Shown one piece after another: positions 2,156-22,619 of a stretch of 64,000 bases of DNA. The DNA is taken from positions 26,910,001 through 26,974,000 of the forward strand of contig CM119371.1 in assembly GCA_051294905.1 (NCBI GenBank). The letters run 5' to 3'. The DNA comes from Botryllus schlosseri. Taxonomy: Eukaryota. The translations under genes were made by a program, and so were the position numbers. Under the pieces are notes generated by a model, which saw only the letters and a list, made by a program, of their open reading frames with translations, was not told the origin of the DNA and ran no database searches. Within the stretch, counting starts at the first letter, position 1. Every line of letters starts with the position of its first letter.

Positions 2156-2349
2156 CTAAGAACACATTGTCGCGAAACGAAGTATTCGGGTGTCAATGGC
2201 TTCGGAACGTGTCGGAAAATCTCTCAGTCAAACCACGGGATGAAGTCGGACATTGGACGTTTTTAACGTAATGGAAGTTCGTCTTCTTTGTTTGGGCGTA
2301 ACAGCCTTTTGTACTCTTGATCATCATTCCATAGTCATCATATTATAAT

Positions 2350-2641
2350 TGGGGTTACCATACGTCCTTATTCGGAGGAGTTATCCTCCTTTTTCAAGAA
2401 ATGTCTTCCCGTAACCCAAAGTCGTCCTTTATAGCCTAAGATACCTAAAAAGACGGCGAACTACGCGAGATGCGGACCGAGAGACTGGTATTTCGGGAGT
2501 AGAGTTCGACAAATGACTATTTTTTTCAGTACACCTTAATGAGATTCGATGTATACACATTTCAAAATCACCCGTTTTCTCGTCCGCAATAGTGGTTTGA
2601 AAAGTGCACTTCTTTACGGATCTCTAAACATGGTGACCCTA
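2350..2641. mobile_element. Short hAT (Blackjack-like) MITE, shared by both duplication units
   Basis: GGGTTACCATACGTCC...ATGGTGACCCTA termini. Also at 14555-14844. TSD not recognisable. Confidence 0.6.
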
Positions 2642-2806
2642 TATTAGGAGATATTTAAACGAATACCCAAACATGGCGTGTCATGTCCAAACTTGTGTAA
2701 TCGGTGCGCAGTCATTGAATATCAATTTATTTTGCGTATGCTGGAGAGTATATAAGCCTACTGCAATCTAGAGAGGTCTTAATATAGTAGCCTACAGTAA
2801 ATACTT

Positions 2807-3058
2807 TTATTCATCATCATAGATATTAACCAAATACACTAAGCACTGAGTGGCAAAGAATATGAAAAGATACATTCCGAAGGCTATCATATATACGAAG
2901 TAGTCGCAATGGCGGGTGGAGTGTGCCCCGTCTTCACTTGCTTGGACTGGTATTCCTTCTCGACATATGTAGCGGCCCATCGAAATCCACAATAATGTCA
3001 TAAACAAGATCAGAAAGACGACGCAATGCATCATGGGAAAACCTGAGAAAAGATTCAT
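2807..3058 (-). CDS. 83-aa two-transmembrane microprotein, copy A (family unknown)
   Basis: Two hydrophobic segments flank a polar Cys-bounded loop, with an acidic tail. TTGCAG acceptor 5 nt before the ATG and AATAAA ~75 nt after the stop (2726-2731). Same-length intact paralog at 15012-15263. Confidence 0.6.
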   Translation of the reverse strand: MNLFSGFPMMHCVVFLILFMTLLWISMGRYICREGIPVQASEDGAHSTRHCDYFVYMIAFGMYLFIFFATQCLVYLVNIYDDE

Positions 3059-5060
3059 GTTATCTGCAACGCAGCCGACTGAGAATAGGAATATTTAGCT
3101 GCATATATGTACCAAAGGTGGTCACTCGGTCAGTAATGAAGTAGTCCTGATTCTACTTATTCGGACTCCTTAAAGTCGGTTTAACTGACTGCACTCTAGT
3201 CCGTGGTTCCGTTTCAGACAGCGTCGAGTTATCTAGGACATCTGCTACTTTCAATTCATAGTTTTTTTTAAATAGTGGAAAACAGTCTTGGACTACTTGC
3301 TTATTTTCTGTCAATTAATTTTGTAATTCTACCTGAAGTAATTTTGATGGCTTGGGAATTTCTACTTTACTTGGATTTAAGTAAAATTTACGGCGTTACT
3401 CCAACTACTATCCTATACTTGAGTGAGAGCTTTGACTACCTCCCTTCTCAACGTCCTACTACAGTGGTTCTCAGCAGCTAGTCGCTGCAAGATATATTCG
3501 ACTCTAATATCTCTATTCCGAAAGGCAAGAAATTGGACGTTTGTCCATTAAAATACTAAACTTCACAATTTAAACATTGAATTAGCGTACGACAGAATGC
3601 TGCAAGTGTTGTACGAAACTGTTTAAAATGAGCATATCACGATTCACGACCAGTTTACTTGAAAGCTCAAAAAGATGTTTAAACAAAGTTCGTAACATTA
3701 CGATGGTACAATTTAGCGACAATTAGTAGTAAAATATAGAGGCAAGAAAACAGCCAACTCGGATTTATTTCAAGGGAAACCAAACGATCAGACTCTGAAG
3801 TTGGGAGGTTTGAACTTCCATAGAACCGCTTATAACGGTCTAATGAAAGAGCAGTAATAAATGATTTCGAATATTCACTGATAAGTTGAATACTTTCGTC
3901 GTAAATTTGCCGGTCCGCACAGTTGATGTTTCATACCGGTCCGCAAGATCAAAAATTTTGAGAGAAACTGGCCTATACTACAAGCCTTATATCTTATAAA
4001 GAGCAAATTTAAATACTTATCAGGCGTAGCCAGGATTATGTTACACAGCGTGAGATGCGACGGTGACTTTATACATTATCCCTTATGAACAGTAGCAGCA
4101 TTTCACCAGAGTGTTTAGAATATGGATCAAAATCGATCATTTGTAGGTAACAAACGTTCATGCCCGTGTGTGTCAGACATAAAAGTAGAGATGGCAGAGA
4201 AATAATGTTATATTCAATACTTCACAATATCTCCTTATATCTTCACTCCCAAAATTTGAATAGAAAGAACATATTTAATAAAATCGGGTCATTATGCCAG
4301 AATCGTGGTTACAAGTTTTAATGTTTAGAGTTATGAGGTACTATATGCAGGTAATTTTAGACGCCACTGACAGCAGGATGGATATTAAGAGAAAAATACC
4401 AATCAATATCATATTAAAAAAGAGGAAGCTGCGACTTAATTTTGCCAAGACCATTTAGCTGCCATTTATGTCATTGAATATGATTTTTACGTTATATGCA
4501 TCTCACCGCGGAATAAGTGAGGAAATATCCCTTGCTCCAATAATGTGGCATAGCGACCAAGGTTCTGTCTCAACTCTCTTCTGTCATCGACGATTCGGGT
4601 GGATCGAATCCTTTCTGTATCGGTAATAGAATATGGCTAAGCGTTTCGTGCCCTGATCAAAATGTTACATACAATAAAAAACGGGTATAAATCGATCTTG
4701 TGACATTTTCAAGCAATACGTTTATATTCCAACCATGCATACTACATAACAGGGTATACGAGCACTTTTGAATTCGACAGAAAATCTAGAAACTCTGTAG
4801 AGCGAATGATTTTGAGCAGTGGTAAACTATATCCGTTAGGTAACCGGGCCTGATCTAACTGATGCGGTGAACCCGCGGGGAACATATGTGATCACCAGTA
4901 TTAGTTTATGTTAACGTTGTGGCGAGACCTATCAATGAAATCCTTTATACTACTGTTGTTGTTCATCCGTAATGTAGACGATACATTACTGATTTCACTG
5001 CAGTATTTCTGAAACTGTCATCCTCTTTGAGGCATTCGAAGTCCACGAATGACCCACAAA

Positions 5061-5445
5061 TAGGGATGGTGTGAACGCGAGGTTCACGTTCGCGCTCTGT
5101 GTGTGAACCTCAGCAATTTGGAGGTTCTCGTTCAAAAACTGTTCTGCACTGTGAACCTTTTTCATATATAACAGTTTTCATTTCTTAACAACATCGTTGG
5201 TTGAATTTTTGCCTTTCAACGGCGGGCCACTCTATGCATAGCGCTGACAGCATAAAAATCAACACTTACCGAACAAGTACCTTGACAATCACAAAAATTT
5301 TACTTGCTTTGTTACAAAAGTTTACTCGAAATATCCATCTTTCCGTTTGCGAATATTTAGTGACTCTCTGCTGTGAGCTTGACCCGCAATGACACAGGAT
5401 CAAGAGAGAAACACACTACATGTAGTCAGCGAATGACGCTTATTG
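5061..5445. mobile_element. Truncated copy of TAGGGATGGTGTGAAC hAT MITE
   Basis: Starts TAGGGATGGTGTGAACGCGAGGTTCAC and is colinear with 1218-1590. The other end is missing. Confidence 0.8.
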
Positions 5446-5599
5446 ACGGTAAATTCGATGGCATGGCTATTCAATATAATTTAGCAAATAAGCATGCGTG
5501 ACTGAAAAATGCGACATAGTGTCCAATTACATTTTGAAATGAATTTTTGAACATATTTTGTACTTAGTGCCGCAAGTTAAATCGCTAAGACTGAAGCCC

Positions 5600-6880
5600 T
5601 TTAGGCCTACATCCGAAACAAGTCCAAGCATTCAACCACACACCATTAGAATCTTCATCATTGTGGTCTTCGTCTGAAGCTCCCTCAGCGGTGTTATCCC
5701 CTCTTCTCCTCATATCGTTGGTAATGCAGCAACGAAAAGCTTAAGTTTAACAGGGAGCGTATTTAAAAATAATAGGGTAAACTAGAGAATAAATATGAAT
5801 ATTGTTATATCTGACTATGAAATTCGAAGCAAGTAACCACAAACTTTGTGATGCTACTAACCATCGCACTGCAATACCTTTAAGCCAACATACAATGCTG
5901 TGTAGACGATACTGTACGGTATGTTCGTCTGGTGTGGATTGCCAATGCGAACGGACCAAAGGTCAATAATTAGATGATGAAGCACCTGGAAGAAACGTCT
6001 AATCACTGATTACCCTTTCAAAAACGTTATTTTGGTGATTTACGTTGTGGTCAGAAATTTGACCGATTCATAAATTCTCTAAACACGATAAGTTTAAAGT
6101 AAGAGTTTTACTGTGTTTTATACAGTGAGGGTTGTATTTGAAACAAATGGTTGTCTAAAACATGTTTTAAACAGTGTTTTAAAGACTGGCCTTTCAAAAA
6201 AATTGTCTTTTTAAGTTATAAAATCTTGCAATAATCGTGTAAATACTTTCCAAAAACATGTTATATGAGCCTACGGACAATTACCACCTGATATAGATGA
6301 CGTTTACGGTTCAGTCGGTTCAACAGGTCTAGTACGTAGATATTTCGTGAAAGGAGCTATATTGACTCTATATTTTCAGTTGTCAATGTCAAACCACTAT
6401 GACGCTACAATTGAATATACGTGACGTCATGGCATGAAGAACAAACAAAAAATGAAAAATAAATTTTAAACAAGGGCCTTATTTTAAACATGTTTGTTTC
6501 AAATTGTTTTTGTTTTAGATGTAACCATCTGCACAGTTATATATATATCATTAGTAGGAAAATATATAGCAAGAAGAGGTTAAGTAGTTTTTCCAGAAAA
6601 TGACCTTTAACCGGTCATATTTATAGGTAAATCGAGAGATAACTACCAATAAGATCCGAAGTCAAATTTTGTCTATAGGAATATCTTGGATGTTTGCTGC
6701 CGTTCTCTTCGACTTCCCAGGTACAGGAAAATGTCGTGTCGGACTCGAGAATGTGAGCATTGCAATTACTCATCCTATAGGTAGCTCAGATTCGTTGTTG
6801 GTATGTCATTGCAAAACCGATGACTTCGAATTATTTACATTATCGATTCGATATGTCGTCATTGGCTCGATCAGTTCCTG
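5600..6880 (-). pseudogene. Degenerate exons of putative type-I membrane protein gene, unit A
   Basis: Minus-strand relics FRCCITNDMRRRGDNTAEG (~5700) and TTFSCTWE (~6730) align with LRCGITNVMKKRGDKTDAG (~19820) and TFSCASME (~20400). Many stops and frameshifts. Confidence 0.35.
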
Positions 6881-8888
6881 AAAACAAGAAACCAGAGAGT
6901 ACAAATCGCCCCGAGGCCGAAATAATGTTCAAATTGATCGTACAGCGGTCCCCGAATGGCCTATATGCTGATTAACCAACGTTGTCGAGAGGCTTAGCTA
7001 TACAACGGATATACTTTCTCTGATTGTAATGCTTGTTCAATGTAAAATATTTGGTGGATTTTTCTGACTTGACTCCTGCTTCTGATCATTCCGTGGTTTA
7101 GGATGGGTTTTTGGGCCATCAATGATTAAGGAGCCCATGTAGAACGGTCTAATTTGAGGTGTAAGTCATATTCGATTGGATACAAGAACTTCAAGTGGGA
7201 AAATGTGAATATAGTAAAACATTGTGGTGCATTTACCTAAAAATAATAGCGTGGAGATCGAGTTACTCGGAAGGGTGATTACAAGGGCTCACGAATCTTG
7301 GTTGATTTTTCTAATATCGATAAATGAAAAGAGCCTTCAAAAATATTTCTATACTTTAAACTCGTATATTCAAACCTGAACGGTTGCCTAATTACAATAA
7401 TAAATAAAATGGTGTTACCTAAGGTCCCACAACTAACAGAAATATACGTTCAGTGTGGTTGTTGTATGGCAGTGGTCGGCAACCTTTATCCGACGCGACC
7501 CCAGTTGAAACGAAAATAAACTCATTCGACACATTTTGCCTTGCGATACGGAGAAGAGCATTCGCAGGATTGCTTAAACTAAATAGTAACAGTTGCGTTG
7601 ACCCCATAATAGAGCTATATCTAATTTCAGATAACTATTTCAAAATTACTGTTTCTACGACAAAACACAAATTGTCACCGTTTAATTTGCATTGGTAATG
7701 CCATAGCTGAGCCTTTATAGCTGTGCCTCCACCAGTTGTCGAAGCCTCGGCTTGACTTTTCATACGCTCAACAATGTCTCATTCTCTGCTTGAATTTGAT
7801 AAAAATGTTTCATTTTCAATATATTGATACTATGCCATCCATATATTGCTAATTTTTTTTCTGCTGAAGATGCCCCTTTGTTCAATATGGCATTTTGCGA
7901 ATTTAATGGTAACATGTAGGGTCGCATTAAAACATGGCCCTTGTTTAAACGTACATATTTTCTCTGGTATAGTAGCATTGTGCGGGATTGCAAACTTGAT
8001 ACCGTGGCCGCTAAAATCTGCTTTATATTGGTTTAATATAAGTGACCGAAGTTCTAATCGGCGCCGTATACGTATTCAAATTAGGATGTTGATACCGATA
8101 CTGATACCCCGGAAATTAAATGTATATTTCTACCCGTTACATACATATTGAAGTAACGGGAGGGACGGAAGTTTTAATCGGTCCAGTAGATATGCGAGGT
8201 AGGACATTGATACTTGAACGACAAATAAATATTAAATTTATATTGTCTATATATCATGTACATACGTGTATAGGTTGTTAAGCATGCTAGTAGCTTTATT
8301 ATTAAAGTAATGGAATAATTACGGCAGTAAATCCTTACTTAATGATGAGCAGAAATGACAATTTCCAAGACGCGTTCAAACCACTTCAAATGGAAGTAGA
8401 AAAGAAATGCAAAATATATCATTTAAATTATACACTGCCTCATGGTGAGTTGCTCTGAATCAATCTTTCTTCGTGATACGGAGTCAACACATGGTAACGC
8501 AGATCTTCTTACAATATGACGTTAGGAGGATGTGTGTGACGTCTTGTCTCGTAGACACACACTCCAAGTATATCCATGATTATATCCGAACAAATTCGCT
8601 GGCAAATATTTCCGAAACTTCACATATCCTAATACTTTCTACGAAATAGGCAGGACGCATGTCTAGAGTCATATTGCGTCGCTGGGTGCCATGTATAAAT
8701 CGAAACTTCAGTATTACTTGCCGTGGACCAATTACCAGAAGATTATCGACACGCAGAGGGGGTCAATGCCGAAATCTTCGGAGTACCCAAGCCGATTATC
8801 CCGCTTACACTATAGTCAAGCTGCTTCCCTTCTACTCAAACAGTATGCTCGGTAAATACTTCAAACTTTGTATTTACATTGTAGTCAG

Positions 8889-11800
8889 TAGGGTTGTTCA
8901 GAATTGACCGACTTTCAAAAAGTCCAGGTTTTCAGTCCGATTCCCATGCCTTATACCTTAAAAACACATTCTGGCAACTTTTTTTTGTAACTCGTCCCCT
9001 GCATCCGTGTGCACATTGAGCTGGAAGAATAGCAGCTGAAAATAGGGGATTCCCCTAAAATCTGAGTGTCACGATTTTACCTACCCTAGTTAAAGTGACC
9101 TATAACATGGATTTATGCAGCTGTTGCGGTTTGGAGTGCTACAAAACCCCACTATATAAGGCATTCCTAGTTTAGGATATCATTTCCATGTCCCACACTG
9201 CCTTAGAACTGCTCAAAACTACCTAAAACTGATAGTCATTTTGTTGGATCACATATCCTACACCCCTCAAACCTACCCGGCACTGTTCATCAATTTCCTG
9301 GATCCCCATGTGCAAGAATACAACTGTAAATGTAACATCCACTCACAGCCATGTAATAAACATCACAGGAAACGAAAAAATAAGGCAAAGAAAGAGATCA
9401 ACTTGGCAAAATATTACATAAATCAGATGGATGAAATGGTTGCTTTTCGAGAAATCTGCATATCTGTTCCGGTGATCTTCCACAGCTTGTAGGAGGCTCG
9501 CTCGCTGTTTTTTGTCATCCGTTATTTACGCAGCATAGTCGGTATTCAATCAGCATAGTCGGTATTCAATTTTACCATACGCTCTGCTGCATCATTAACT
9601 ATACTTCAACAGTATTCACAAATTCTTGAGCAGTCACGAAATCCGGATCTGTATGCCATTCCGAAACTGGATGACTCAACCAATCATGTTCCACATGTAT
9701 AGCATCAAATAGAAACCACGATTCTGGCCCAATCAAATCGACCATACTCCTTGACTCAGAGACAGCGTCAGAGATCAGACTGAGAGGCATACCTCTGCAA
9801 AATTTTTCAGGGATTGGCATTTTCAGCAATTTAGCAGCCATCGCTTCCTTCAGTTTGTCAGGAATCTTTGGATTAGCCGAGAACGTGGTAAATACCACCA
9901 TTTCCTCAGTTAGATACCAATGATGTTTTCGCAATTTCTTGTATGCCACATCAGCAACGGTGAGATCGCATAATGAAAAGTTTTTCATGTCATGAAGGAA
10001 TTTGATATCATTCCAAGGTGCGTCACATGCAATACCAGTTTTCAACCAAGCTGGAACATAAAACAAAGCAATGAATGTATTGATTCGTTCCAACTTTTCA
10101 ATGAACTCTTCACAATAGTCCATTTGCTCACTCCACATGAAGAACATTTTTTGACAGTACAGGACTTGACTCATCCATCTAGCGCTATGAGTAGCACCAG
10201 GCTTGCGAAACGATGATCAACATATTTGTCATCCAAAATCGCCAAGGTGCCTGTTGCACATTCTCTGTAGTCATCTCTTATCAAGACTTCTTTCTGCTTT
10301 CCATCATTGGGTTTCATCAGTGGAATCAATTTCTTGCTTTGCTTCATCAGCTTTCATCGCCAACCAGCTGCCTTCAATAAACTTCAGCGTTTTATAGCTT
10401 CTTGATTTATCAATATGTTTCCACTTCTTCTTGAAGGTATTAAAATCCGTGTTTTCAGGGCCTGCGGTTGTCGATCCAAACAAACACTTCCAAACCTCTC
10501 GTATGACCAGTTCATAAATATGATGGCGACAGGCATTGTAGAAAACTTTCCTGTTAATCAATTCTTCAAGTAACGGAACCGCACCTTTGTTTTTACCAGT
10601 GTTTGAGGATGTTGTGACAAACACAAGAGCTCTAACAGATTTTGTTAAATTCCAAAGTTCCTAACAGATTTTGTTAAATTCCAAAGTTCCAACAGTTCAA
10701 ATGATGCATCAGCCTGTGCTTTTCCTGTAGCACTTTCCAGAGTTTAAATGCCAAGAAGTTTCCCTTTCTTAAATGCGCCGGAATACGCAGACGATGCGAG
10801 CACTGCCAAGGCCTCAAATTGATATCCTAGACGACTCTTAGTGAGCTTTCCATCCTAGTGCAATGCAATGTGCTCTGGTGGATTGGTGGATATTTTTTCA
10901 AAGATAGATTCGGAAATTTTCCAACGATTTGCAATGCGTCGTCGATAGCTCCAGATCTTGAAAGATGGAAGTCATTAGGGTTGCCATCGCAAGCTTTAAT
11001 CAGTGCTGCAGTTATCATGGTAGCGGCATTATCACTGACTTTCAAGCGATCAAAAACCTGGCATAGGTCTTTGTCGCTGAATAGGTTTACAGGAGCTTTT
11101 AGAGTCACAAATTTAGCGGAATGACCAGATGTCGACTATGCAAGTTCAAAATCAGTGCTGTGAGAAGTGTCAGCTACCTGTGAAGATATAGATGAGCTCT
11201 CTGTAAATTCACCTTCGCTACTTGATGCTGGTGCAGACTCTCTTGCACTCATGGTCCGTGTCTTTTGTTGCATGATTTTCGCTTTCAACACTTTCTTTGC
11301 CACCGATCGCTTCTAATCTCGGACCCCTTTGATCCTGATAAAATGCTATGTCTTCACGTTTTTATTGTCAGAAAGAAGTCTACTTGCTTCAATTGTCGCT
11401 ATTGCGTCAGGGGCTCCTATATCTCATAGCTTACTCAGTTTGGCTTCAAAGTCGCTTTGTTTTTAGATACATATTGCCGGCCTGCAGTTTTCTTTAGTGA
11501 CAGCCATTGTTTCCACACTGTTTCCAATCTTTTAGTGGCATTGACTTTTGTGATAGTCTTTATGCCAGCAAGTAGTCTTTATGCCTGCAAGTAACCAAAA
11601 ACCGATCACTTCATCTACTGCGATCTGGATGTGTGACTTGACTGGTTCATTTTTTAAAAATGAATGCTCTCTCAGGTGTAGCACATATTGCATAACTTGC
11701 CTCAGAGTGGGCAACTTCGATCCCGTAATGGCTTCCTCAGATGGCCCAACTAAGAAATGCTGTGTCGGCGATCGTGTTCTTCTAGTTTTCTTCGGTACTG

Positions 11801-12594
11801 GTGCGCTAGATAACGATTTTCTTTTTTTTCAGACATTTCGCACTACAGCTAATCCTAGAAAAACAGATATACATAAACTCAGTCAAGCAACAAAGTATAG
11901 TGGAAAACATTTCAGTTCTTTTAGAGTTTTAGGTCGAACACATACTGCATAACTTGCACAGGAGTAGCCAGATTAGATCCAATTATAGATTATCGAAGAT
12001 AGTTATTCCTAAATTGGAAAAACTCATACCAGTATATTGATATCTAGGGATATAACCAAAAATTTAGAGCAACCGACTGGCGGTTTTCCCCAGTCACTGG
12101 AATAGACATTTGCAAGCTTTGTTTCTATCCCAGTAGAAAGGAAAAGAGTATCAGGTCTATTATATCAAATAGTTGTATACTGCTATAATACTATGTTCAC
12201 TAATCACGCGCTAAACTCGCTAATAGCATGAGTCAAAACGCCGCCTGATAAGTCCTGCACCTCAATCGTAAACACAGTCCATCAACAACAAAGCAGCAAG
12301 GCACCTGACTAATCAATGATTCCCGTTTCACAGCCGTGCTCAGCGCTTCATCAGCGCTAGAACATACGCGTCACGTCAATGAGAACACACGCCATTCCTG
12401 TCGAGTCACTGACAACGGGGGAATCCCCTAATTTCGAAGAAATTTTTAGGTGCATGAGAAAACGGCAATGTGCACACGGATGCAGGGGATGAATTACAAA
12501 AAAAGTAGCCAGAATGTGTTTTTAAGGTATAAGGCATGGGAATCGGACTGAAAACCTGTACTTTTTGAAAGTCGGTCAATTCTGAACAACCCCA
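8889..12594 (-). mobile_element. Full-length decayed hAT-superfamily transposon (hATm-like) with ~130-bp TIRs
   Basis: TIRs TAGGGTTGTTCAGAATTGACCGAC... (8889-9018) and ...GTCGGTCAATTCTGAACAACCCCA (12466-12594). 8-bp TSD GTAGTCAG (8881-8888, 12595-12602). Confidence 0.92.
9480..11800 (-). pseudogene. Disrupted DDE transposase (hATm-like)
   Basis: Motifs in order: LPTLRQVMQY..FWLLAGIKT, ALH*DGK, TTSSNTG, ACRHHIYEL, PGATHSARWM, SWFLF, VNDAAER. Broken by stops, frameshifts and small tandem duplications (~9530, ~10640). Confidence 0.85.
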
Positions 12595-12886
12595 GTAGTC
12601 AGTATTTTGGATGCATGTTACTCCCTCGAGTGAAAATGTCGTGTTGAAGTGGATGAAATAACCCTTACCAGGCGGCTACAAAGAAATTTTTTGAAAGCTG
12701 CGCCTTTTTGTACTATCGTACCTCATTTGCATTCAGCACGGAGACGCATCCCGCAATTTCGAATGTTGCCGCCCTCGTTTATAACTGTTAACAATATACG
12801 GCCCCTCTGTAAGATCTCTTGTTCGAGTATTTTCAAAGATCTACATTTCAACTCCTACTTACAGTCATTTTGACATTTCTTATATA

Positions 12887-14277
12887 CAGGGTTACCATCG
12901 ACATGGACCAAAAAATAAGGACAGTCGAAAAATTAAATTGGCATGAAAAAGCGTTTTTGTACATATAGGCTACTGCATTTATACGAGCCGTGGCATATCA
13001 TATTCCATACTTTTCACCAGAAACAATCTGCTCCAGCAACTCCCTGTTATTAGAAAGTGCTTCATGGATCTCGCGACAGCTCAGTTCTAGGTTTACCTTT
13101 ATTTAGGGCCGAAACAGCACTTCGTCAGCCCTCCCCCCCAAAAAATACCGTTGGTGTTGCCCCCTGGAGTGGTAAACCAAATTTCGTCACCTCGTTAAGA
13201 CGAGGCGTCAACAATGATGGAAAAAGGCCGCACACCAAGTTTAGACACATCATTTTTGAGCGTATGGAGCAACAACTCCAGTAACAATGCTTGTCGCCTT
13301 GGTGCTGGCCGAAGAAAACTTATTTGAAATGTTGGAATCGGAGAATATTGCTTTGAACAATTGCGATGTGTAATCGTTGGGGAGGAATGATTGCTGGTGT
13401 TTGACAGTATAGAATGCCTAGGTACCCTCTGCAGCTGCTGCCTTGTAGTCTGATGTCGTTGGTGCTGATCGACTTGTGGAAAAATTATTCATTGACTGGA
13501 TCAAATTAATCATCATGTCATGACACACTTCTTGCGTTTTGGGGTATCAATGTAAGTTGAAGTAGCGGTCTCTCCTATGGCCTCCAGGTTAATGTTACAA
13601 TTGCAGATATTGCTATGTGCGAAACACTCGCCCTTCAATCTTCGTTAGATACCGTTGAATTCTCACTCATAATCGACACGAAAGACGTTTTTACGCCTGT
13701 TTATTTCAACTAATCAGATTTAGTCTTCTTTGTAGCTAAAACAATATGCGCAAGTGCAATATAATTTGGAGAAATTTATCAATGATTTATAGCTTTACTA
13801 CTTTTTAACCAATGTGTCGACTGCACTGCGCCTTTTTTTCACTACGCAATAAATGCTGCTTTCCCCACAGCTTGAGCTTATTCTGCTGTGGACCAAACAG
13901 CAGTAACCTGGCATTACTGTTTACTGCTAAAATGACGTCCGCTGCGGTAGCTTGGTACAGCCGAACCACTACTCACTGCCCTAGCTATCTCACCATTTAG
14001 AAGTCAAATCTTGTGGTGTGTACGTCACGAGGGTTCCTTTCATTTATGATGTCATAAAATCTCGACGAATAAGCTTAATTTTAGAATATTATGCAACATG
14101 CAACATAGATACCAGAGGAAAACGATCGAAGTTTTGTAGCGGTTGAAAATAAGACAAAATAAGGACGCAAGTCGAAAATAAGGACATTTCTTAGAAATAA
14201 GGACAGTCGAGTATTCTAAGACGTGGTCCTTCAAAATAAGGACAAATCTTAGAAATAAGGACGGTATGGCAACCCTG
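12887..14277 (-). mobile_element. Internally deleted hAT (Blackjack-like) element with transposase relics
   Basis: TIRs CAGGGTTACCAT/ATGGCAACCCTG, ATAAGGAC subterminal repeats, TSD CTTATATA (12879-12886, 14278-14285). Minus strand reads AAEGT*AFYTVKHQQSF...TKATSIVTGVVAPY, PFSIIVDAS and ..LLEQIVSGEKY. Confidence 0.9.
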
Positions 14278-15011
14278 CTTATATATCACTACTTGCAACT
14301 GTATTTTAGCTAGATTTCAGCGCAATAGAACCATATTTGCATTTCGACGACATCGATGTCTAAAGAACACATTGCCGCCAAACGAAGTATTCGGGCGTTA
14401 ATGGCTTCGGAACGTGTCGGAAAATCTCTCAGTCAAACCGAGGGATGAAGTCGGACATTGGACGTTTTTAACGTAATGGAAGTTCGTCTTCTTTGTTTGG
14501 GCGTAGCAGCCTTTTGTACTCTTGATCATGATTTCATAGTCATCATATTGTAATTGGGGTTACCATACGTCCTTATTTGGAGGATTTATCCTCCTTTTGT
14601 CTTCTCTTCGCCCAAATGTCCTCCTTTATATCCTAAGATACCTAAAAAGACGGCGAACTACGCGAGATGCGGACCGAGATGACGGGAGACTGGTATTTCG
14701 GGAGTAGAGTTGGACAAATGACTGATTTTTCCGGTAAACCTAATGAGATTCGCTGTGTAAATTTCAAGATCACCCGTTTTCTCGTCCGCTATAGTAGATT
14801 TGAAAAGTTTACTTCTTTACGGATCTCTAAACATGGTGACCCTATATTAGGAGATATTTAAACGAACCCTCATACATGGCGTGTCCAGTCCAAACTTGTG
14901 TAATCGGTGCGCAGTCATTGAATATAAATTTATTTTGCGTATACTAGAGAGTATATATAATGCGATCTAGAGAGGTCTTAATATAGTAGGCCTACAGTAA
15001 ATAGGCTACTT

Positions 15012-15263
15012 TTATTCATCATCATCGATATTAACAAAATACACTAAGCACTTAGCGGCAACAAATATGAAAAGATACATTCCGAATGCTACCATATATA
15101 CGAAGTAGTCGCAACGGCGGATGGAGGCTGCCACGTCCTCTCTTGGTTGGCCTGCCGTTCCTTCTCGACATAGGTATCGTCCCATCACAATCCACAATAA
15201 TGTGAAAAAGATGGCCCCAAAGATGGCGCAACACATCATGGGATAATCTGAGAAAAGATTCAT
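15012..15263 (-). CDS. 83-aa two-transmembrane microprotein, copy B
   Basis: ATG at 15263. No indels or stops relative to copy A. TTGCAG acceptor 6 nt upstream, AATAAA at 14929-14934. Confidence 0.6.
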   Translation of the reverse strand: MNLFSDYPMMCCAIFGAIFFTLLWIVMGRYLCREGTAGQPREDVAASIRRCDYFVYMVAFGMYLFIFVAAKCLVYFVNIDDDE

Positions 15264-16293
15264 TGTTATCTGCAACGCAGCCGATTGAGAATAGGAATAT
15301 TTAGCTGCATCTAAAGGTGGTCAGTGAGAAAGTACTTCTACTTTTTCGAACACCTCAAAGTGGGCCTAGCGGACTGACCTATAGTCAGTTTCAGTGAACT
15401 TCTGTTTAACTAGGACAGATATCTACTACTGTTCGCAGTTTTTACTTGGAAAAGTAGATTGCAGTCTCAAACTACTTGCTCTATTTTCAGTCGATTAATT
15501 TGGTACTTCTACCCGAACTAATTTGGATGGCTTGTGAATCCCTACTTTACGAGCAATTAAGTAAAAATTTACGGCGGTACCCCAACTACTATACTTTACT
15601 TGAGTGACAGCGTTGATTACATTCTTCATAACTGCCTACTACAGTGGTTGTCAGCAGCCGGTCCGTGGAAAGCTTCCTTCGGGTCAGCCAGATATACTGG
15701 ACTTTTATATCACAATTCCAAAAGGCTCGAAATTTGACAATTGTTCATGAAAATATCAAACATCACAAATTAAATATTGAGCTATGTTTCCCAGTCTGCC
15801 TTGCGATTAGCGTATGTCACAATGCTGCAAGTCTTGTTCGAAACTATTTAAAATGAGCCTATTACGACCCGTTTACGTGAAAGCTTATACATATGTTTAA
15901 ACGAAGTTCATTACATTACGACGGTACAATTTAGCGACATTAAGCAGTAAAATATAGAGGCAAGAGAACAGCTAACTCCGATTTATTTCAAGGGAAAGCA
16001 AATGATCAAACTCCGACGTTGGCGGTCTCAACTTCAATTGAACCGCGTAGAACATATCTAATATGAAAGAGCAGTATTAAATAATGACGAATATTTACCT
16101 ATTAGTTGCATACTTTCGCCGGTAACAGTTTATTTTGTTGTTTTATACCGGTCCGCAAGATCAAAAAGGTTGACAAACACTGGCCTATACTGCAAGCGTT
16201 ATATCTTATAAAGAGCAAATGTAAATACTGATCAGGCGTGGCCAGGATTATGTTGCACAGCGTGCGATACGAAGGTGCCTTTATACTTTATAC

Positions 16294-17510
16294 CAGTGGT
16301 TCTCAACCGGGGGTCCGCGAAGCATTTTCAAGGGGTCCGCGAAGCCTCAAAATAATTGATAACCGAATTTGTATTTTTTTAATCGGGAAATCACGTGGCA
16401 CAGTTTCGCTTCATTACTAGTAAAACTCCAGAGCTCACATCAACAGTATGGCCGTCTGAGATGAAATATCCTACTGTGCGGCTCATTTTAATCCAAAAAT
16501 TGCCAATAGCCTACTGATACAAACATTTTGCTGTTTAGAGATGTTTTGTGGACTTGGGCCGCGGGCAGGATTCAAGAGTTTTTGCCACTCGCGGGCCGGA
16601 TCAGTCAAATAATTTCAATATGCTACGTCCACATCCATATCTTTGTTTTTCACTAGAATGCTTTATTGATATCACGGAATATGTGGGCCCACTCTATTCC
16701 AGCAATAACGTTATTCGCAAACAATGGAATTGGCAAAAATACGATAATTGGCCGGTTGAATACATTTATTATCTACTATAAGAGTGGCTGTAACGAGGAT
16801 ATGATTGAAAGATTTCTATGCCCATTTTAGTGGACAATGTCACTGGACAACGGATATGCGTCGTTGGTCCGACCTATTCGTGGAGAAAAATATGCTGGAT
16901 TATTTGCGTCGAATTATTCAGTAGTAAAATCTCAACTTCTGTAAAAAATCTGTCGGATAATGAGATTAATTTTTTCAATTTACTCAGAATGGCCTCGCGC
17001 GGGCCGGATGCAGCCCGCGGGCCGTATGTTTGACACCCCTGTGCTAGATAGAAATGACCAGACTCGACGTTGTATGTACATTGAAAAATTGCTTTTCAAT
17101 TTTGGTGCCATATTTATTGCGATCATACCCAAATGTGTCGTTGGAAGCGTTACGCGTTATTATTACATTCGCCATAACCTAAAATTGTGGGACCCAATTT
17201 TCGGCACTCGTTCATATCAAACCGAAGGCGCGTATTTTCAAGACACCACCACGTATTTCAGGATTGCAGTTGCAGAATTTGCTTTGAAATATTAAAAGTC
17301 ATCCCAATTTCAAAATGAAGAGTATGATCTTATTTTCAAGAAAAGTCATTTTGTTGCTCTTTATCACTAAGCCTACAGCTATCATTTGCACAAGTCAAAT
17401 GGTGATTGCATGATAATTGAGCTAAATTTGATCTAAAACTTCGTGGGGGTCCGCGGGGTCCGTGACGGTCCGGAAGGGGTCCGCGAAGACAAAAAGGTTG
17501 AGAACCACTG
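16294..17510. mobile_element. hAT Charlie/Buster-type non-autonomous element with nested MITE fragment (~16548-17041)
   Basis: TIRs CAGTGGTTCTCAACC/GGTTGAGAACCACTG, TSD CTTTATAC (16286-16293, 17511-17518). Empty site at ~4067. Confidence 0.92.
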
Positions 17511-17829
17511 CTTTATACCTTATAAACTGTTGCAGCATTTCACTCTGGTGTTCTGAATATATATCAAAATCGATCATTTGTAGGTAATAAAAGTTTATTC
17601 ACGTGTATGTCTGATATAAAAGCGGAGGTGGCATATAAATAATGTTATGTTCAATACTTCACAATATCTCCTACTTAATATTTTCACTCCTTAAATTTCA
17701 ATATGAAGACAATCTTTAATGAAATCGGGCCATTATGCCAGAATCGTAGCTACAGGCTTTACAGTTTAGAGATATGAGGTACTATATGCCGATAATGCAA
17801 GACGCTACTAACAACAGGATAAATATTAA

Positions 17830-18744
17830 GCGGACAAGCAACCCAGAAAAATCAAAATTTTCGATTGTTTTTCTGGTACGAAATATTAACATGGTATTTC
17901 TGCCGTCACCTCATGGCCTCATTTTACCTAAACAATAACAATTCGGGTTCATTTCAATATGAATATACGATTCAATTGTATATTGAAGTTCTGTACCTCC
18001 AAGAAGCTCTTCAAACAACTAAAAACTGCAAAATTTCAATTTTATTTTTCTTCTATAATGGGGTGGGGGGGTCAAGTTTCAACCAAAAGATCACATGTTC
18101 AACCCGATACCTCTATAAAATATATGGTTTGGCCGTTAGAAAAATATATATCTATACTATCTTCGGGTACAAATTTGTTACATTGTTGTCAGTTGTCATT
18201 CAAGCATTCCGGCATTCATTCTTATAATTACATCGGCAACACTTGGTTCATAACTTTTTACCAAATAGTTTTATGTAATTTTCTTTCAAAAATTTTTTCC
18301 CTAAATGATTCACTCATGGTTTTTCGGAAATGTGACATTCAGACATGGGCTGTTCTAAAAGTTTTTTGACATCGGTCTACCATGCTAAGAGTCACAGAAC
18401 TTCAAAGCAAACTTACAGCAAATTTATGAATTTTTAATTTTGAAATGAAATTTCTTCGAAATGGGTTGCAGAGTAATCCTTGAAATTTTAGCATAGAACA
18501 GCACTGTCCTAGTACTCCTGAAGAAAGCGTTAGATCGGAAAAAAGGCTTCATAATATCGAGATTTTACATAGCCCGTGTCGGTGCATTTTTTGTCCTTGA
18601 AATCCAACAAAATTCACGATCTGCAGGGTAGAACGAAATTTCTTTGTTTTTTTGTTGATAGCATAGCAACAATTAGCAACTGTGAAAATTTCATGCTGAT
18701 GGGGGTAGCAATCCCAAATTTAGGTTTTGGGGTTGCTAGTCACC
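17830..18744. mobile_element. Kolobok-like non-autonomous element at a TTAA site
   Basis: TTAA|GCGGACAAGCAACCC ... GGGTTGCTAGTCACC|TTGA. Paralog has the empty site ATATTAAGAGAAAAATACC (~4382). Superfamily inferred from the TTAA site and G-starting termini. Confidence 0.65.
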
Positions 18745-18879
18745 TTGAGAAAAATACCAATGAATATCATATTATAAAATAGGAAGCTGCGACTTAATTT
18801 AGCAAAGAATATTTATATGTGATTCATGTCATTGAATATGATTTTTGCGATATGTGCATCTCGCCGTCAAATAAGTGAG

Positions 18880-20560
18880 GAATTATCCGTTGCTCCAAGA
18901 ATGGGGTATAGCGACCAGGGTTCTGTCTGGACTCTCTTCTTTCATCGACGATTCTGGGGGATCGAGTCCTTTCTGTATCGGTAATGGAATATGGCTAAGC
19001 GTTTCGTGCCCTGATCAAAATGTTACAGACAATCAAAAACGGGTTTAAATCGATCTTGGGACATTTTCAAACGATACGTTTAAACTTCTTCCATTCATAC
19101 TAAATGACAGGGTATATGAGCACTTTTGAATTCGACAGAAAATCGAGAATCTCTGTAGAACGAATGATTTTGAGCAGTGGTAAACTATATCCGTTAGGCA
19201 ACCGGGCCTGATATAACTGATTCGGTAAAACTGCGAGGAACACATGTGCTCACCAGTATTAGTTGCAAGCGCGCGCTCATTTATGTTAACGTTGTGGCGA
19301 GACCTATCAATGAAATCCTTTATACTACGGTTGTGGTGCACCCGCAATGTAGACGATACATTACTGATTTCACTGCAGTATTTGTGAAACTGTTATCCTC
19401 TTAAGACTGCGGTAAATGAACATTCGAAGCCTACGAATGATCCACAAACATCTAAACATTCTCGCTGAAATTTCGAACATGTCGTAAATACTTGACCGAT
19501 AGATTTATTTTATGTTATGATGATACATCTGCTGGCAAGCCGAATTCGCCAAATAACAATTTTATACTGTTCTACTGGTCTCAGCATTCATCGGCACATT
19601 TCAACGACATGATTGTTATTTTAAAATAGTTAATGAATGAATGGACAACGCCTGAAGTGAACTGGAACGGTGAACTTTGGGCAATTGACATATTATATGA
19701 GCGTACACGTTTTCTGCGATTTCACCAAACACATTCCAGGTTTTCACTCACTTACCAGTAGATCGCTGAACAGTGTTATCCCCAGTAGTGATCCCCGCAT
19801 CGGTTTTATCCCCCCGCTTCTTCATAACGTTAGTAATACCGCACCGTAAACGTTTTATTGTAATGAACGGCCTATATTCGTTGAACATAACATCTTAAAC
19901 TAGTATAGTAATGGCGTTTCTTTCAGTACCATCTGAGTAATATGAACAAGGGGAACAGGATCCCAAATAACGCGATACAATTCACTACCACACATCAGTA
20001 ACTTTGTGGCGTACACACTTAGCTACAGACCATGCTGCATGATCTGTCCGTCCAGTCGTTATTTCCAATGGAAACGGAACCGAGGTCGTCGATGGCGACA
20101 CACCCGAGAAAATCATCTCATCACTAATTACCTATTGCGAAACGTGTTCTCGGGATGAATGTTGGTGTTAAATAACAAATTATTTAAACACATAAAAGCC
20201 GAAGCTGCTGTGTTTTATATACGAAAATATATGCTACTGGCAGTAAAATATATTAATCAGTTTTCTTAGTTAGTGTCCGCAAAATTGTAATACTTATACG
20301 TAAAAACAAACATAAATATTAAAATATCCCATGTTAGAAATTGTATGGGAAAGTTTCGTCTGCAATAATAGTCCAGTTTTCTTCTCCATCGAGGCACAGG
20401 AAAATGTCGATTAGAGAAAGTTAACATAACAAGTATTTTCCAGAGGCAGCTTTAACCATATCAGGTTTATTATAATTTGCACAACCGACTTTTCACGAAC
20501 TCTTCATATCCTCGATTCGATCGTTCGCAACTCGGGCTGGACTGCTTGGACCAGTCCTGG
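18880..20560 (-). pseudogene. Degenerate type-I membrane protein gene, unit B
   Basis: S/T/P stalk (GVSPSTTSVPFP), TM-like VVVNCIALFGILFPLFILLRWY*KKRH, cytoplasmic segment ending at a GTAAGT donor (~19755), and a later exon-like block HETLSHIPLPIQKGLDPPESS also present in unit A (~4580-4650). Confidence 0.4.
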
Positions 20561-21584: not shown

Positions 21585-21930
21585 CTATTTAAAAGCATCC
21601 TGTCGTTTCGGGCCATCTTGAACAGCCGCGAGTCTTTTGTAGACCTTCATCTCCGAGCAGCACGGGACGTGAATCGTCAACGTGTTGGCGTAAACGTCAT
21701 CAAACCACCACCTAATGGTACCGAAGTCTGTTTCGTTGAAGTTGGCATTCAGATTGGTCCCGCCCCGCTGCCACCATCCTTCGCGGTCAGACGACCAACC
21801 ATCATGATCCGCGTCTTTCGTCGAGAATTGTTCATTGTTGTGATATACGAGACCATCTGCGGCTACATTCCCGGAGAATCCGGATACGTGCAATGTGTAG
21901 TTGTCGGATCCGGGACCGATGCGGAAATTC
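21585..21930 (-). CDS. Fibrinogen-related domain (FReD), last exon
   Basis: NFRIGPGSDNYTLHVSGFSGNVAADGLVYHNNEQFSTKDADHD..GWW..TNLN..IRW..SEMKV. TTCTTCCAG acceptor at 21931. Confidence 0.75.
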
Positions 21931-22323
21931 CTGGAAGAATTTAGAACCATGGCGTCACGATTTGACGTTAGTGACGACATGATGGAGCATGACGAGGGCG
22001 CTGTTGAGTGCTTGTCGGTATTACGTGATTGCGTCAGTATTACGTCATTACGTATAACGAGAGAATTCTTTCTCTATTTTGAATTTGGAATTGAAAACCA
22101 AACCAACATCATCAAGAAAGATTTCCCGAAGAAATTATAAATCGGCGGATTGACGTGAAGATCAAAAGTAAGGAAATTGCCACATAGGCGCAAAGAACCA
22201 ACAGTCAATAAATTTAAAAGATTTTGGTGAATTATCATGAGATAGTTATTCGCGCTCGCTGATTGAGTCACATCGATTAACCTAATTTGGTCATTGTCAA
22301 CTCCGTGTACAGTATTCGAATAC

Positions 22324-22423
22324 CTGTATTTAGCCCACAAATGGTCTTTTTCGTCTTTCGTCATCACGTTGATTTCCAACGACGTGTCATTTCCTTTTGT
22401 CATTTGATGCAATGACTCGAGCC
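22324..22423 (-). CDS. Fibrinogen-related domain, penultimate exon
   Basis: TTTTCAG|G-LESLHQMTKGNDTSLEINVMTKDEKDHLWAKY-R|GTATTC. Splices in frame (phase 2) to 21930. N-terminal FReD exons not found, so possibly a pseudogene. Confidence 0.7.
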
Positions 22424-22619
22424 CTGAAAAAATATCGGTTTTCAGTCGATTACTTTCAAACGCAAAATATCATATAAAACGCAACACGACGCTTACTATT
22501 TTAGTCCTCACACAATCGGGTAGTGGTGATTGTGCTGTTCGTGGTGTTCATCAACTGTTATGGTCATTTACACCAGGCTCACAACCCTTTGGTGTTGCAG
22601 CTGTGGGTCACACCACTTC

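Follow-up and report, generated by a model that had tools for sequence, protein, structure and literature searches.

Two open reading frames (ORFs), at 2807-3058 and 15012-15263 on the minus strand of a 64,000-nucleotide stretch of the Botryllus schlosseri genome (assembly GCA_051294905.1, contig CM119371.1, positions 26,910,001 to 26,974,000; hereafter the window), are almost certainly the third exons of two three-exon genes, which we call W1 and W2. They belong to an array of six such genes. On balance, we favor the reading that these genes are intact, that the four in the middle of the array are hybrids of the two at its ends, and that the family encodes 137-residue two-helix membrane proteins that likely serve as partner-binding tags. 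All coordinates are window positions, and negative values lie to the left of the window start.

Two ORFs are the third exons of longer genes

An earlier note, made from the letters alone, had described the two ORFs as a duplicated pair of 83-residue microproteins, each with its own start codon behind a TTGCAG acceptor. Both 83-codon ORFs are present, and the counts given for them are borne out: 39 of 252 nucleotides differ, with a replacement in 26 codons and silent change alone in 5, 57 of 83 residues are the same, and 18 of the 26 replacements fall in the first transmembrane segment and the loop, where the changes were said to cluster. The motifs MGRYxCREG, CDYFVYM and DDE* are kept in both ORFs, and an AATAAA lies 3' of each (Table 1); a second AATAAA overlaps the W1 stop (2811-2806). 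No indel falls inside the ORF, as compared with 40 alignment gaps in the surrounding 2-kb duplicated block, and the Poisson probability of a frameshift-free pair is about 0.001-0.002.

The microprotein with its own start does not survive, because the product in both genes is a 137-residue protein from three exons. For exon 3 the data point to the acceptor TTTTCTCAG at 3043/3042, which is kept in 5/5 close copies; the first ATG of the ORF is out of frame in one neighboring copy (L002) and absent in the distant copy c6. Codons 1-5 of the ORF, as well as the one-nucleotide indel beside them, are therefore intronic. The TTGCAG letters and the indel are where they had been described, but their reading as untranslated region (UTR) falls, since they belong to intron 2. 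We also considered the TTGCAG at 3064/3063 as an alternative acceptor and rejected it, because it needs an 87-nucleotide middle exon and none is common to the copies. Exon 2 measures 108 nucleotides in the close copies, except for 105 nucleotides in L004, and 111 nucleotides in c6. Exon 1 of W1 has an in-frame stop upstream of its ATG, and the homologous exon of a neighboring copy is found in the joined contig described below.

Evidence for splicing comes from two small contig sets, X2 and X3 (10 and 19 million letters), and is indirect. Their contigs cover the bin of the ORF, the 5595-5823 bin and repeats; coverage is zero in 20/30 bins in X2 and 15/30 in X3, and intron bins outside repeats mostly have depth 0 in both. 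One contig in each set (depth 14.1 in X2 and 15.1 in X3) matches exon 3 from 3033 downwards, starting at contig position 190, and the same two depths are the sole coverage at 5682 in exon 1, 34 letters from the contig end. From these depths and positions we predicted, before exon 2 had been located, that exon 1 would end at a phase-1 donor near 5644 and that the middle exon would measure 108 (or 87) nucleotides; the 108-nucleotide exon was then found at 4614-4507, and the spliced lengths add up exactly (72 + 108 + 9 = 189). The exon-2 bin is empty because exon 2 of the neighboring copy L005 is 79.6% identical to that of W1, below the 80% threshold. Depths and lengths together make the splicing of L005 a tight, if indirect, inference. 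A second contig, in X2 and X3 alike, ends 2 nucleotides above a YAG/TTTA acceptor-like site (from_end 36 and 46) that is common to 6/6 copies, 62-74 nucleotides before the ATG, which points to splicing at this place, in cis or in trans. At 2826-2980, the depth of the W1-type exon-3 contigs (19 and 32) exceeds that of the spliced contig of L005, but neither set has a W1-type contig of exon 1 or 2.

Table 1 Features of the W1 and W2 genes and of the blocks that compose them
Feature	Position	Strand	Description
c6-type block of W1	5447..8890		Start of intron 1, exon 1, upstream region; common to copies left of the window, absent from W2
Left part (about 385 nucleotides) of hAT-type MITE	5061..5446		Intron 1, at c6-type/W2-type junction; in 4/4 hybrids
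W2-type block of W1	2158..5060		3' flank, exon 3, intron 2, exon 2, end of intron 1; homologous to 14363-19448
W2 block	14363..19448		Homologous to 2158-5060 (81-86% identity, three pieces); two insertions in intron 2
W1 5' UTR	5714..5781	-	Behind YAG/TTTA acceptor-like site at 5782/5781
W1 coding exon 1	5644..5713	-	ATG at 5713; 23 codons + 1 nucleotide; phase-1 GT donor; c6-type half
W1 coding exon 2	4507..4614	-	108 nucleotides, phase 1-1; CAG acceptor, GTGAG donor
Supposed start MNLFS of the earlier note	3043..3058	-	End of intron 2, with acceptor TTTTCTCAG
W1 exon 3	2807..3042	-	Predicted helix 1 about 3034-2978; loop 2977-2903; helix 2 2902-2849; acidic tail; stop
AATAAA of W1	2726..2731	-	Putative signal, from the letters only
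W2 coding exon 1	19756..19825	-	Length and phase as W1; 54-59% identity to the other five
W2 coding exon 2	18865..18972	-	108 nucleotides; donor GC instead of GT
W2 exon 3	15012..15247	-	Second ORF minus five intronic codons
AATAAA of W2	14929..14934	-	Putative signal, from the letters only

An array of six genes, four of them very probably hybrids

Searching the 496-Mb genome with two different members revealed not a pair but six copies, a lower bound like every genome copy count given here, all on the minus strand of C1 in one array of 81 kb. Their stops lie at -61537 (c6), -42001 (L004), -19249 (L002), -5645 (L005), 2807 (W1) and 15012 (W2), and the identity of the ORF to W1 is 64-79% for the close copies and 23% for c6. 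All six models are open, at 137, 137, 137, 136, 137 and 155 residues; both introns are in phase 1 in every copy, with AG acceptors throughout and a GT donor in 11 of 12 introns. Coding indels among the six are multiples of three only, and the alignment of c6 to the others is gap-free over 64 codons at 42-47% nucleotide divergence. Further copies with random stops and frameshifts, which the earlier note had named, together with a lack of expression, as what would refute its proposal, were not seen. A seventh intact variant, P0001, lies outside the assembly: this 59-residue fragment from a public contig is 56% identical to W1, has another tail and corresponds to none of the six array copies. In the c6 gene (L010:8463-8747), the first helix is rich in glycine and weakly hydrophobic, the tail consists of an Asp/His repeat, and the acceptor lies 21 nucleotides upstream of those of the others.

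The four middle genes are, with high probability, hybrids of the two end genes, c6-like in their 5' half and W2-like in their 3' half. Upstream, in exon 1 and in early intron 1, the hybrids are 87-94% identical to c6 and W2 shows 47-67%; from late intron 1 through exon 3 they are 72-91% identical to W2, with 52-63% for c6. The c6-type block is present five times in the genome, and a genome search found no close copy of W2 exon 1 elsewhere. This region-by-region switch of identity, together with the distribution of the blocks, leads us to the hybrid origin. The junction is marked by the left part of a hAT-type miniature inverted-repeat transposable element (MITE). On the W2-type side, the element ends in a precise terminal repeat that abuts the intron exactly, and its broken end meets the c6-type intron. 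Full copies of the same MITE carry terminal repeats and 8-bp target duplications, and no trace of it was found in intron 1 of c6 or W2, so that neither parent has the element. Full hAT-type MITE copies, about 0.9-1.3 kb long, occur at 1218-2155, -72338, -37795 and -24828, and the W2 unit holds an empty site (14278-14368) for the one at 1218-2155.

A short series of events would account for this arrangement. Two old paralogs, c6 and W2 (about 55-65% identical), would have stood in tandem; one exchange in intron 1 would have placed the c6 promoter and exon 1 before W2 exons 2-3; and unequal crossing-over would then have amplified the hybrid unit to four. Two routes to the junction fit equally: a break inside an insertion on one chromosome, joined to the c6 intron on the other, or a crossover in a 66%-alike intron stretch now missing from the hybrids, followed by insertion and deletion.

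Comparable events are reported from maize, where Ac/fAc (hAT) alternative transposition at the p2/p1 locus makes the chimeric P-oo alleles (PMC1592236), and where hAT elements make tandem duplications (PMC3744419). As in P-oo (PMC1592236), two linked three-exon paralogs are fused in an intron, with a fractured hAT element at the junction and its terminus joined precisely to the intron of the other paralog. Unlike P-oo, the product here is a duplication with a subsequent fourfold amplification; both parents are still present, and the element is missing from intron 1 of each. The array would be an unusually readable record of the birth of a gene family, with parents, hybrid, junction and four amplified copies all within 81 kb, and the survival of parents beside hybrids opens the order of events and the effect of the promoter and exon-1 swap to direct testing.

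The predicted proteins are two-helix hairpins

The first 60 residues are highly charged and contain no hydrophobic stretch. The exon-3 part has two hydrophobic peaks by hydropathy (Kyte-Doolittle 1.7-2.5), in agreement with the two transmembrane segments proposed earlier; the first peak is weak in c6, below the threshold of 1.2 that we used. Two loop cysteines are invariant in the six copies and P0001, and the tail is acidic. W1 and W2 share 85 of 137 residues (8/23, 25/36 and 52/78 by exon). AlphaFold, run on the exon-3 alignment, returns a helical hairpin with helices 6-34 and 43-82 and a pLDDT of 68. Because the charged N-terminus lacks a hydrophobic stretch, no signal peptide is predicted, which would leave both termini in the cytosol and the 25-residue loop facing outward; termini inside and a disulfide-closed outer loop would be the simplest topology.

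Searches for relatives used exon-3 or single-exon queries. Pfam, run on the ORFs, the exons and the six exon-3 proteins, gave no family (best E 0.043, with one member each of five unrelated families), and a sequence search of the PDB with single-exon queries gave 0 matches at E up to 10. The ESM Atlas returned no usable match for exon 3 of W1 and c6, which shows neither absence nor novelty. In a search of 5.8 billion proteins, one of 540 candidates matched, the unnamed intact fragment P0001; none of 7,997 longer candidates did, which is weak evidence. Fold searches retrieved generic hairpins only (PDB best E 2.5; viral best E 0.56; wide search best Z 9.2 at 2% identity). Another two-helix array, at about 9.01-9.04 Mb of C1, has no similarity to this one (best tblastn E 0.47, hidden Markov model E 2.7), and among the papers listed by our literature search none was on the family. 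Since the queries were single exons only, distant relatives are possible.

The Fester family of Botryllus allorecognition receptors comprises type I proteins with Ig and Sushi domains and three transmembrane helices (PMC12582321). It shares with our array the organization of tunicate membrane-protein clusters shaped by birth-and-death evolution and intergenic recombination (PMC12582321), but the array proteins have two predicted helices and neither signal peptide nor ectodomain. We rejected membership in the Fester family: no Pfam domain was found in any exon scanned, and the proteins show two hydrophobic peaks and a charged N-terminus. RNASEK, subunit f of the V-ATPase (PF23489), is a small two-helix hairpin, as the array proteins are predicted to be, and has a similar helix-2 motif and, in this genome, its domain on one exon; the array proteins differ in their shorter loop with two invariant cysteines, long charged N-terminus, acidic tail and fast evolution. 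The genome's RNASEK gene (L073:1471-1761; C2, 17.597 Mb) has its whole 96-residue coding sequence in one open frame. CD225/dispanin (PF04505) and PIRT (PF15099) proteins are two-helix membrane regulators of the same size class and layout, to which the array proteins have no sequence or profile match, and the intron position differs from that of CD225. PIRT was set aside, as none of the 3 genome matches to PF15099 lies in the array. A large tandem expansion of CD225/dispanin genes occupies about 12.6-22.6 Mb of C13, which holds most of the 71 matches found genome-wide at E up to 1; 38 matches exceed the family cut-off, and their domains span two exons and carry cysteine runs.

Constraint and divergence among the copies

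Neutral simulation on the five-copy tree gave a probability of 0.002-0.02 that exons 2 and 3 acquire no stop and of at most 0.002 that no stop arises and both helices are kept. This result, the intactness of all six copies, the intact relative P0001 and the spliced-form contigs of one copy bear out the orphan family of small membrane proteins that the earlier note had proposed. Judged from its sequences, the family is real, constrained and lineage-restricted, and consists of predicted two-helix membrane proteins of 137 residues without detected relatives. A functional protein is very likely made from at least some copies.

The proposal of diversifying selection fared less well. The ratio of replacement to silent divergence (omega) is 1.04 for exon 3 in five copies and 1.13 for exons 2 and 3; the earlier note's own caveat about neutrality was apt. 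Site model M2a was not better than M1a (p = 0.38, 0.26 and 0.57) in our own MG94 code, which has low power with 5-6 sequences and ignores recombination. For the ORF pair, NG86 gives a replacement divergence (dN) of 0.19 and a silent divergence (dS) of 0.12, the latter resting on 5.5 silent changes, and the low silent count behind the 26:5 split has a binomial P of 0.05-0.30, depending on the neutral silent share assumed. The pair, moreover, does not diverge rapidly: 16.7% of the exon-3 sites differ, as do 17.1% of those in intron 2.

Among the four hybrids, 97 of 338 sites in exons 2 and 3 vary (29%) versus 156 of 934 in the introns (17%; p = 5e-6, or 4e-4 for non-CpG sites), and no 100-column window outside the exons (0/35) is as variable as the exons themselves. 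Most hybrid pairs are diverged by 10-20% in exons 2-3 versus 8-10% in intron 2, about twofold. With five copies the counts are 113 of 338 versus 222 of 916 (p = 0.0015), and the excess is significant in 3/4 copy subsets. This excess is the one sign, and an indirect one, of selection for difference; on selection for distinct variants among the copies our judgment is evenly divided. Purifying selection would keep the frame, the hydrophobicity and the loop, and exchange between copies would level the introns more than exons 2-3, so that several distinct variants persist. Within the protein, the loop is least variable (11/25) and helix 1 most (14/19), the reverse of a classic hypervariable ectodomain.

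A pattern in which conversion evens out introns and selection protects coding differences is described for paralogs such as the human L/M opsin array, where divergence is kept against gene conversion (PMC3924837). The opsins resemble the hybrids in being tandem paralogs with introns more alike than coding exons. The opsin peak surrounds two known functional sites (PMC3924837), whereas the excess in the array is broad and includes silent sites and the 3' flank.

Weighing the interpretation

Several observations weigh against intact genes for variable membrane tags. No read falls on the ORF in 5/5 raw RNA runs (X4, X6, X8, X10 and X24; 3-54% of each covered), in contrast to the expression that the earlier note had suggested looking for, and our run search listed no RNA data set with the sequence. 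X2 and X3 come without a recorded library type; the exon joint itself is not among the 15 joints listed, there being 96 others; and the contig with the spliced form carries L005 variants, so that its source is neither W1 nor W2. W1-type contigs in X2 and X3 (1-2 differences) span 2826-2980, that is, exon 3 only, and no W2-type contig was identified in either set. The absence of indels in the ORF pair is weak when taken alone, as 213 of 778 overlapping 228-nucleotide flank windows are also frameshift-free (these windows included exon 2, then unrecognized), and the second intron of W2 has a GC donor. As regards selection, omega is not clearly above 1 and the site models are not significant; the exon excess is gone in the subset W1, L004, L002 and W2 (p = 0.24) and absent within the W1/W2 pair. 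Variability is equal across the three codon positions (34, 42 and 36 of 112) and raised in the 3' flank too (24%); the excess could therefore stem from a local mutation rate or from an old haplotype. Finally, basic residues right after helix 1 speak for the reverse topology, or at least would fit a cytosolic loop too.

The most serious competing account is that the genes are real but redundant and under relaxed constraint, any two-cysteine hydrophobic hairpin being sufficient, with drift at omega near 1 and no selection for differences among the copies. The omega values, the site models and the equal divergence of exon 3 and intron 2 in W1/W2 all agree with it, as does the peak of variation in helix 1, where T-rich codons swap hydrophobic residues easily. 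Relaxed constraint alone predicts no exon excess, however, and exons 2-3 of the hybrids vary about twice as much as intron 2, also without CpG sites; we regard this account as possible but unlikely. That the array is mostly silent, its open frames being left over from the recent duplication of decaying genes, would explain the empty RNA runs, the omega near 1, the transposon insertions in introns and near stops and the GC donor of W2. Decay is hard to reconcile with 6/6 genes whose exons, phases and frames are all preserved although divergence reaches 45%, with coding indels in multiples of three, with the simulation (P at most 0.002) and with the spliced-form contigs, and we consider it quite improbable.

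Two further accounts derive the family from known proteins. Descent from a copy of RNASEK, with a present role as an altered accessory subunit in the proton pump or a similar complex, is suggested by at least seven of the Foldseek matches listed, which are subunit f (E 4.3-8.2), by an IAxG[M/I]Y motif that helix 2 shares with the RNASEK of this genome, whose domain likewise contains no intron, and by an hhalign score that only 2/150 segment shuffles reached. That profile match covers 12-13 columns at probabilities of 4.9% and 12.8%, and its target was chosen after the fold list had been seen. PF23489 has no match to the two exon-3 proteins searched at E up to 10, and the array is not among its 6 genome matches; VIA Z is 4.9-6.3 at a root-mean-square deviation (rmsd) of about 5 (for subunit f in 6vq6_f, Z 6.3, rmsd 5.1 and 71 aligned), under that of unrelated hairpins. 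With a loop 11 residues shorter, a 60-residue N-terminal extension and none of the 77-83% conservation seen among RNASEK relatives, the array family makes this descent improbable. That the array proteins are CD225/dispanin (IFITM-like) members which have diverged strongly and restrain membrane fusion is more improbable still. The genome does hold the large CD225 expansion, and the coarse layout is the same if, as we take it to be, that of CD225 is a hydrophilic N-terminus and two hydrophobic segments separated by a loop of about 25 residues, which the array proteins match by hydropathy. PF04505 gives no match, and the profile against eight native genes scores 11.8 (probability 0.35%), as high as which came 16 of 40 shuffles. 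In the native genes, an intron splits the domain between the first segment and the loop, unlike in the array genes.

We return to the reading of intact hybrid genes for two-helix membrane proteins. Their putative role, likely on present sequence evidence, is that of variable partner-binding tags in a few cell types. A Cys86-Cys105 disulfide would close the outward 25-residue loop; the conserved GRxxCxE and RxC residues of the loop and an A-x-x-x-Y face of helix 2 might hold a partner membrane protein; and helix 1 and exon 2 would tolerate change. A putative role in recognition or defence is doubtful, and nothing connects the array genes to the immune or gamete functions that the earlier note had raised. 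More speculative, and in our view rather improbable, is a fuller scenario in which a transposon-made fusion of two old paralogs founded a new family of tunicate disulfide-loop hairpins whose variants, held apart by selection, tag the cell surface for identity or defence in a restricted cell type or stage. If true, this would be a minimal module for recognition that lacks any Ig, lectin or Sushi domain. Should selection keep the variants apart, the array would qualify as a candidate module for recognition or defence in an animal closely related to vertebrates. As seen now, it is an ordinary orphan tandem family of chimeric origin without an attached function.

Other features of the array and its surroundings

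Two blocks upstream of W1, at 6628-7584 and 8218-8583, are kept in all c6-type units (74-90%) and duplicated once more beside c6. They contain splice-like motifs and no common frame, and may be promoter or non-coding exons; one X3 contig lies within the first block, at 7144-7271. Coding exons in 6628-7584 and an FN3-like reading of 5530-5631 were both dropped, because the frames differ between copies. Just upstream of W2, at 21585-22469 on the minus strand, is a fragment of a fibrinogen C-terminal domain with broken frames (PF00147, E 1.3e-5). Elsewhere in the genome, the GH6 domain, which in animals marks tunicate cellulose synthase, gives a sign of tunicate origin: at 15.01-15.07 Mb of C9, three matches to it lie within 55 kb, two of them in open frames of over 500 residues.

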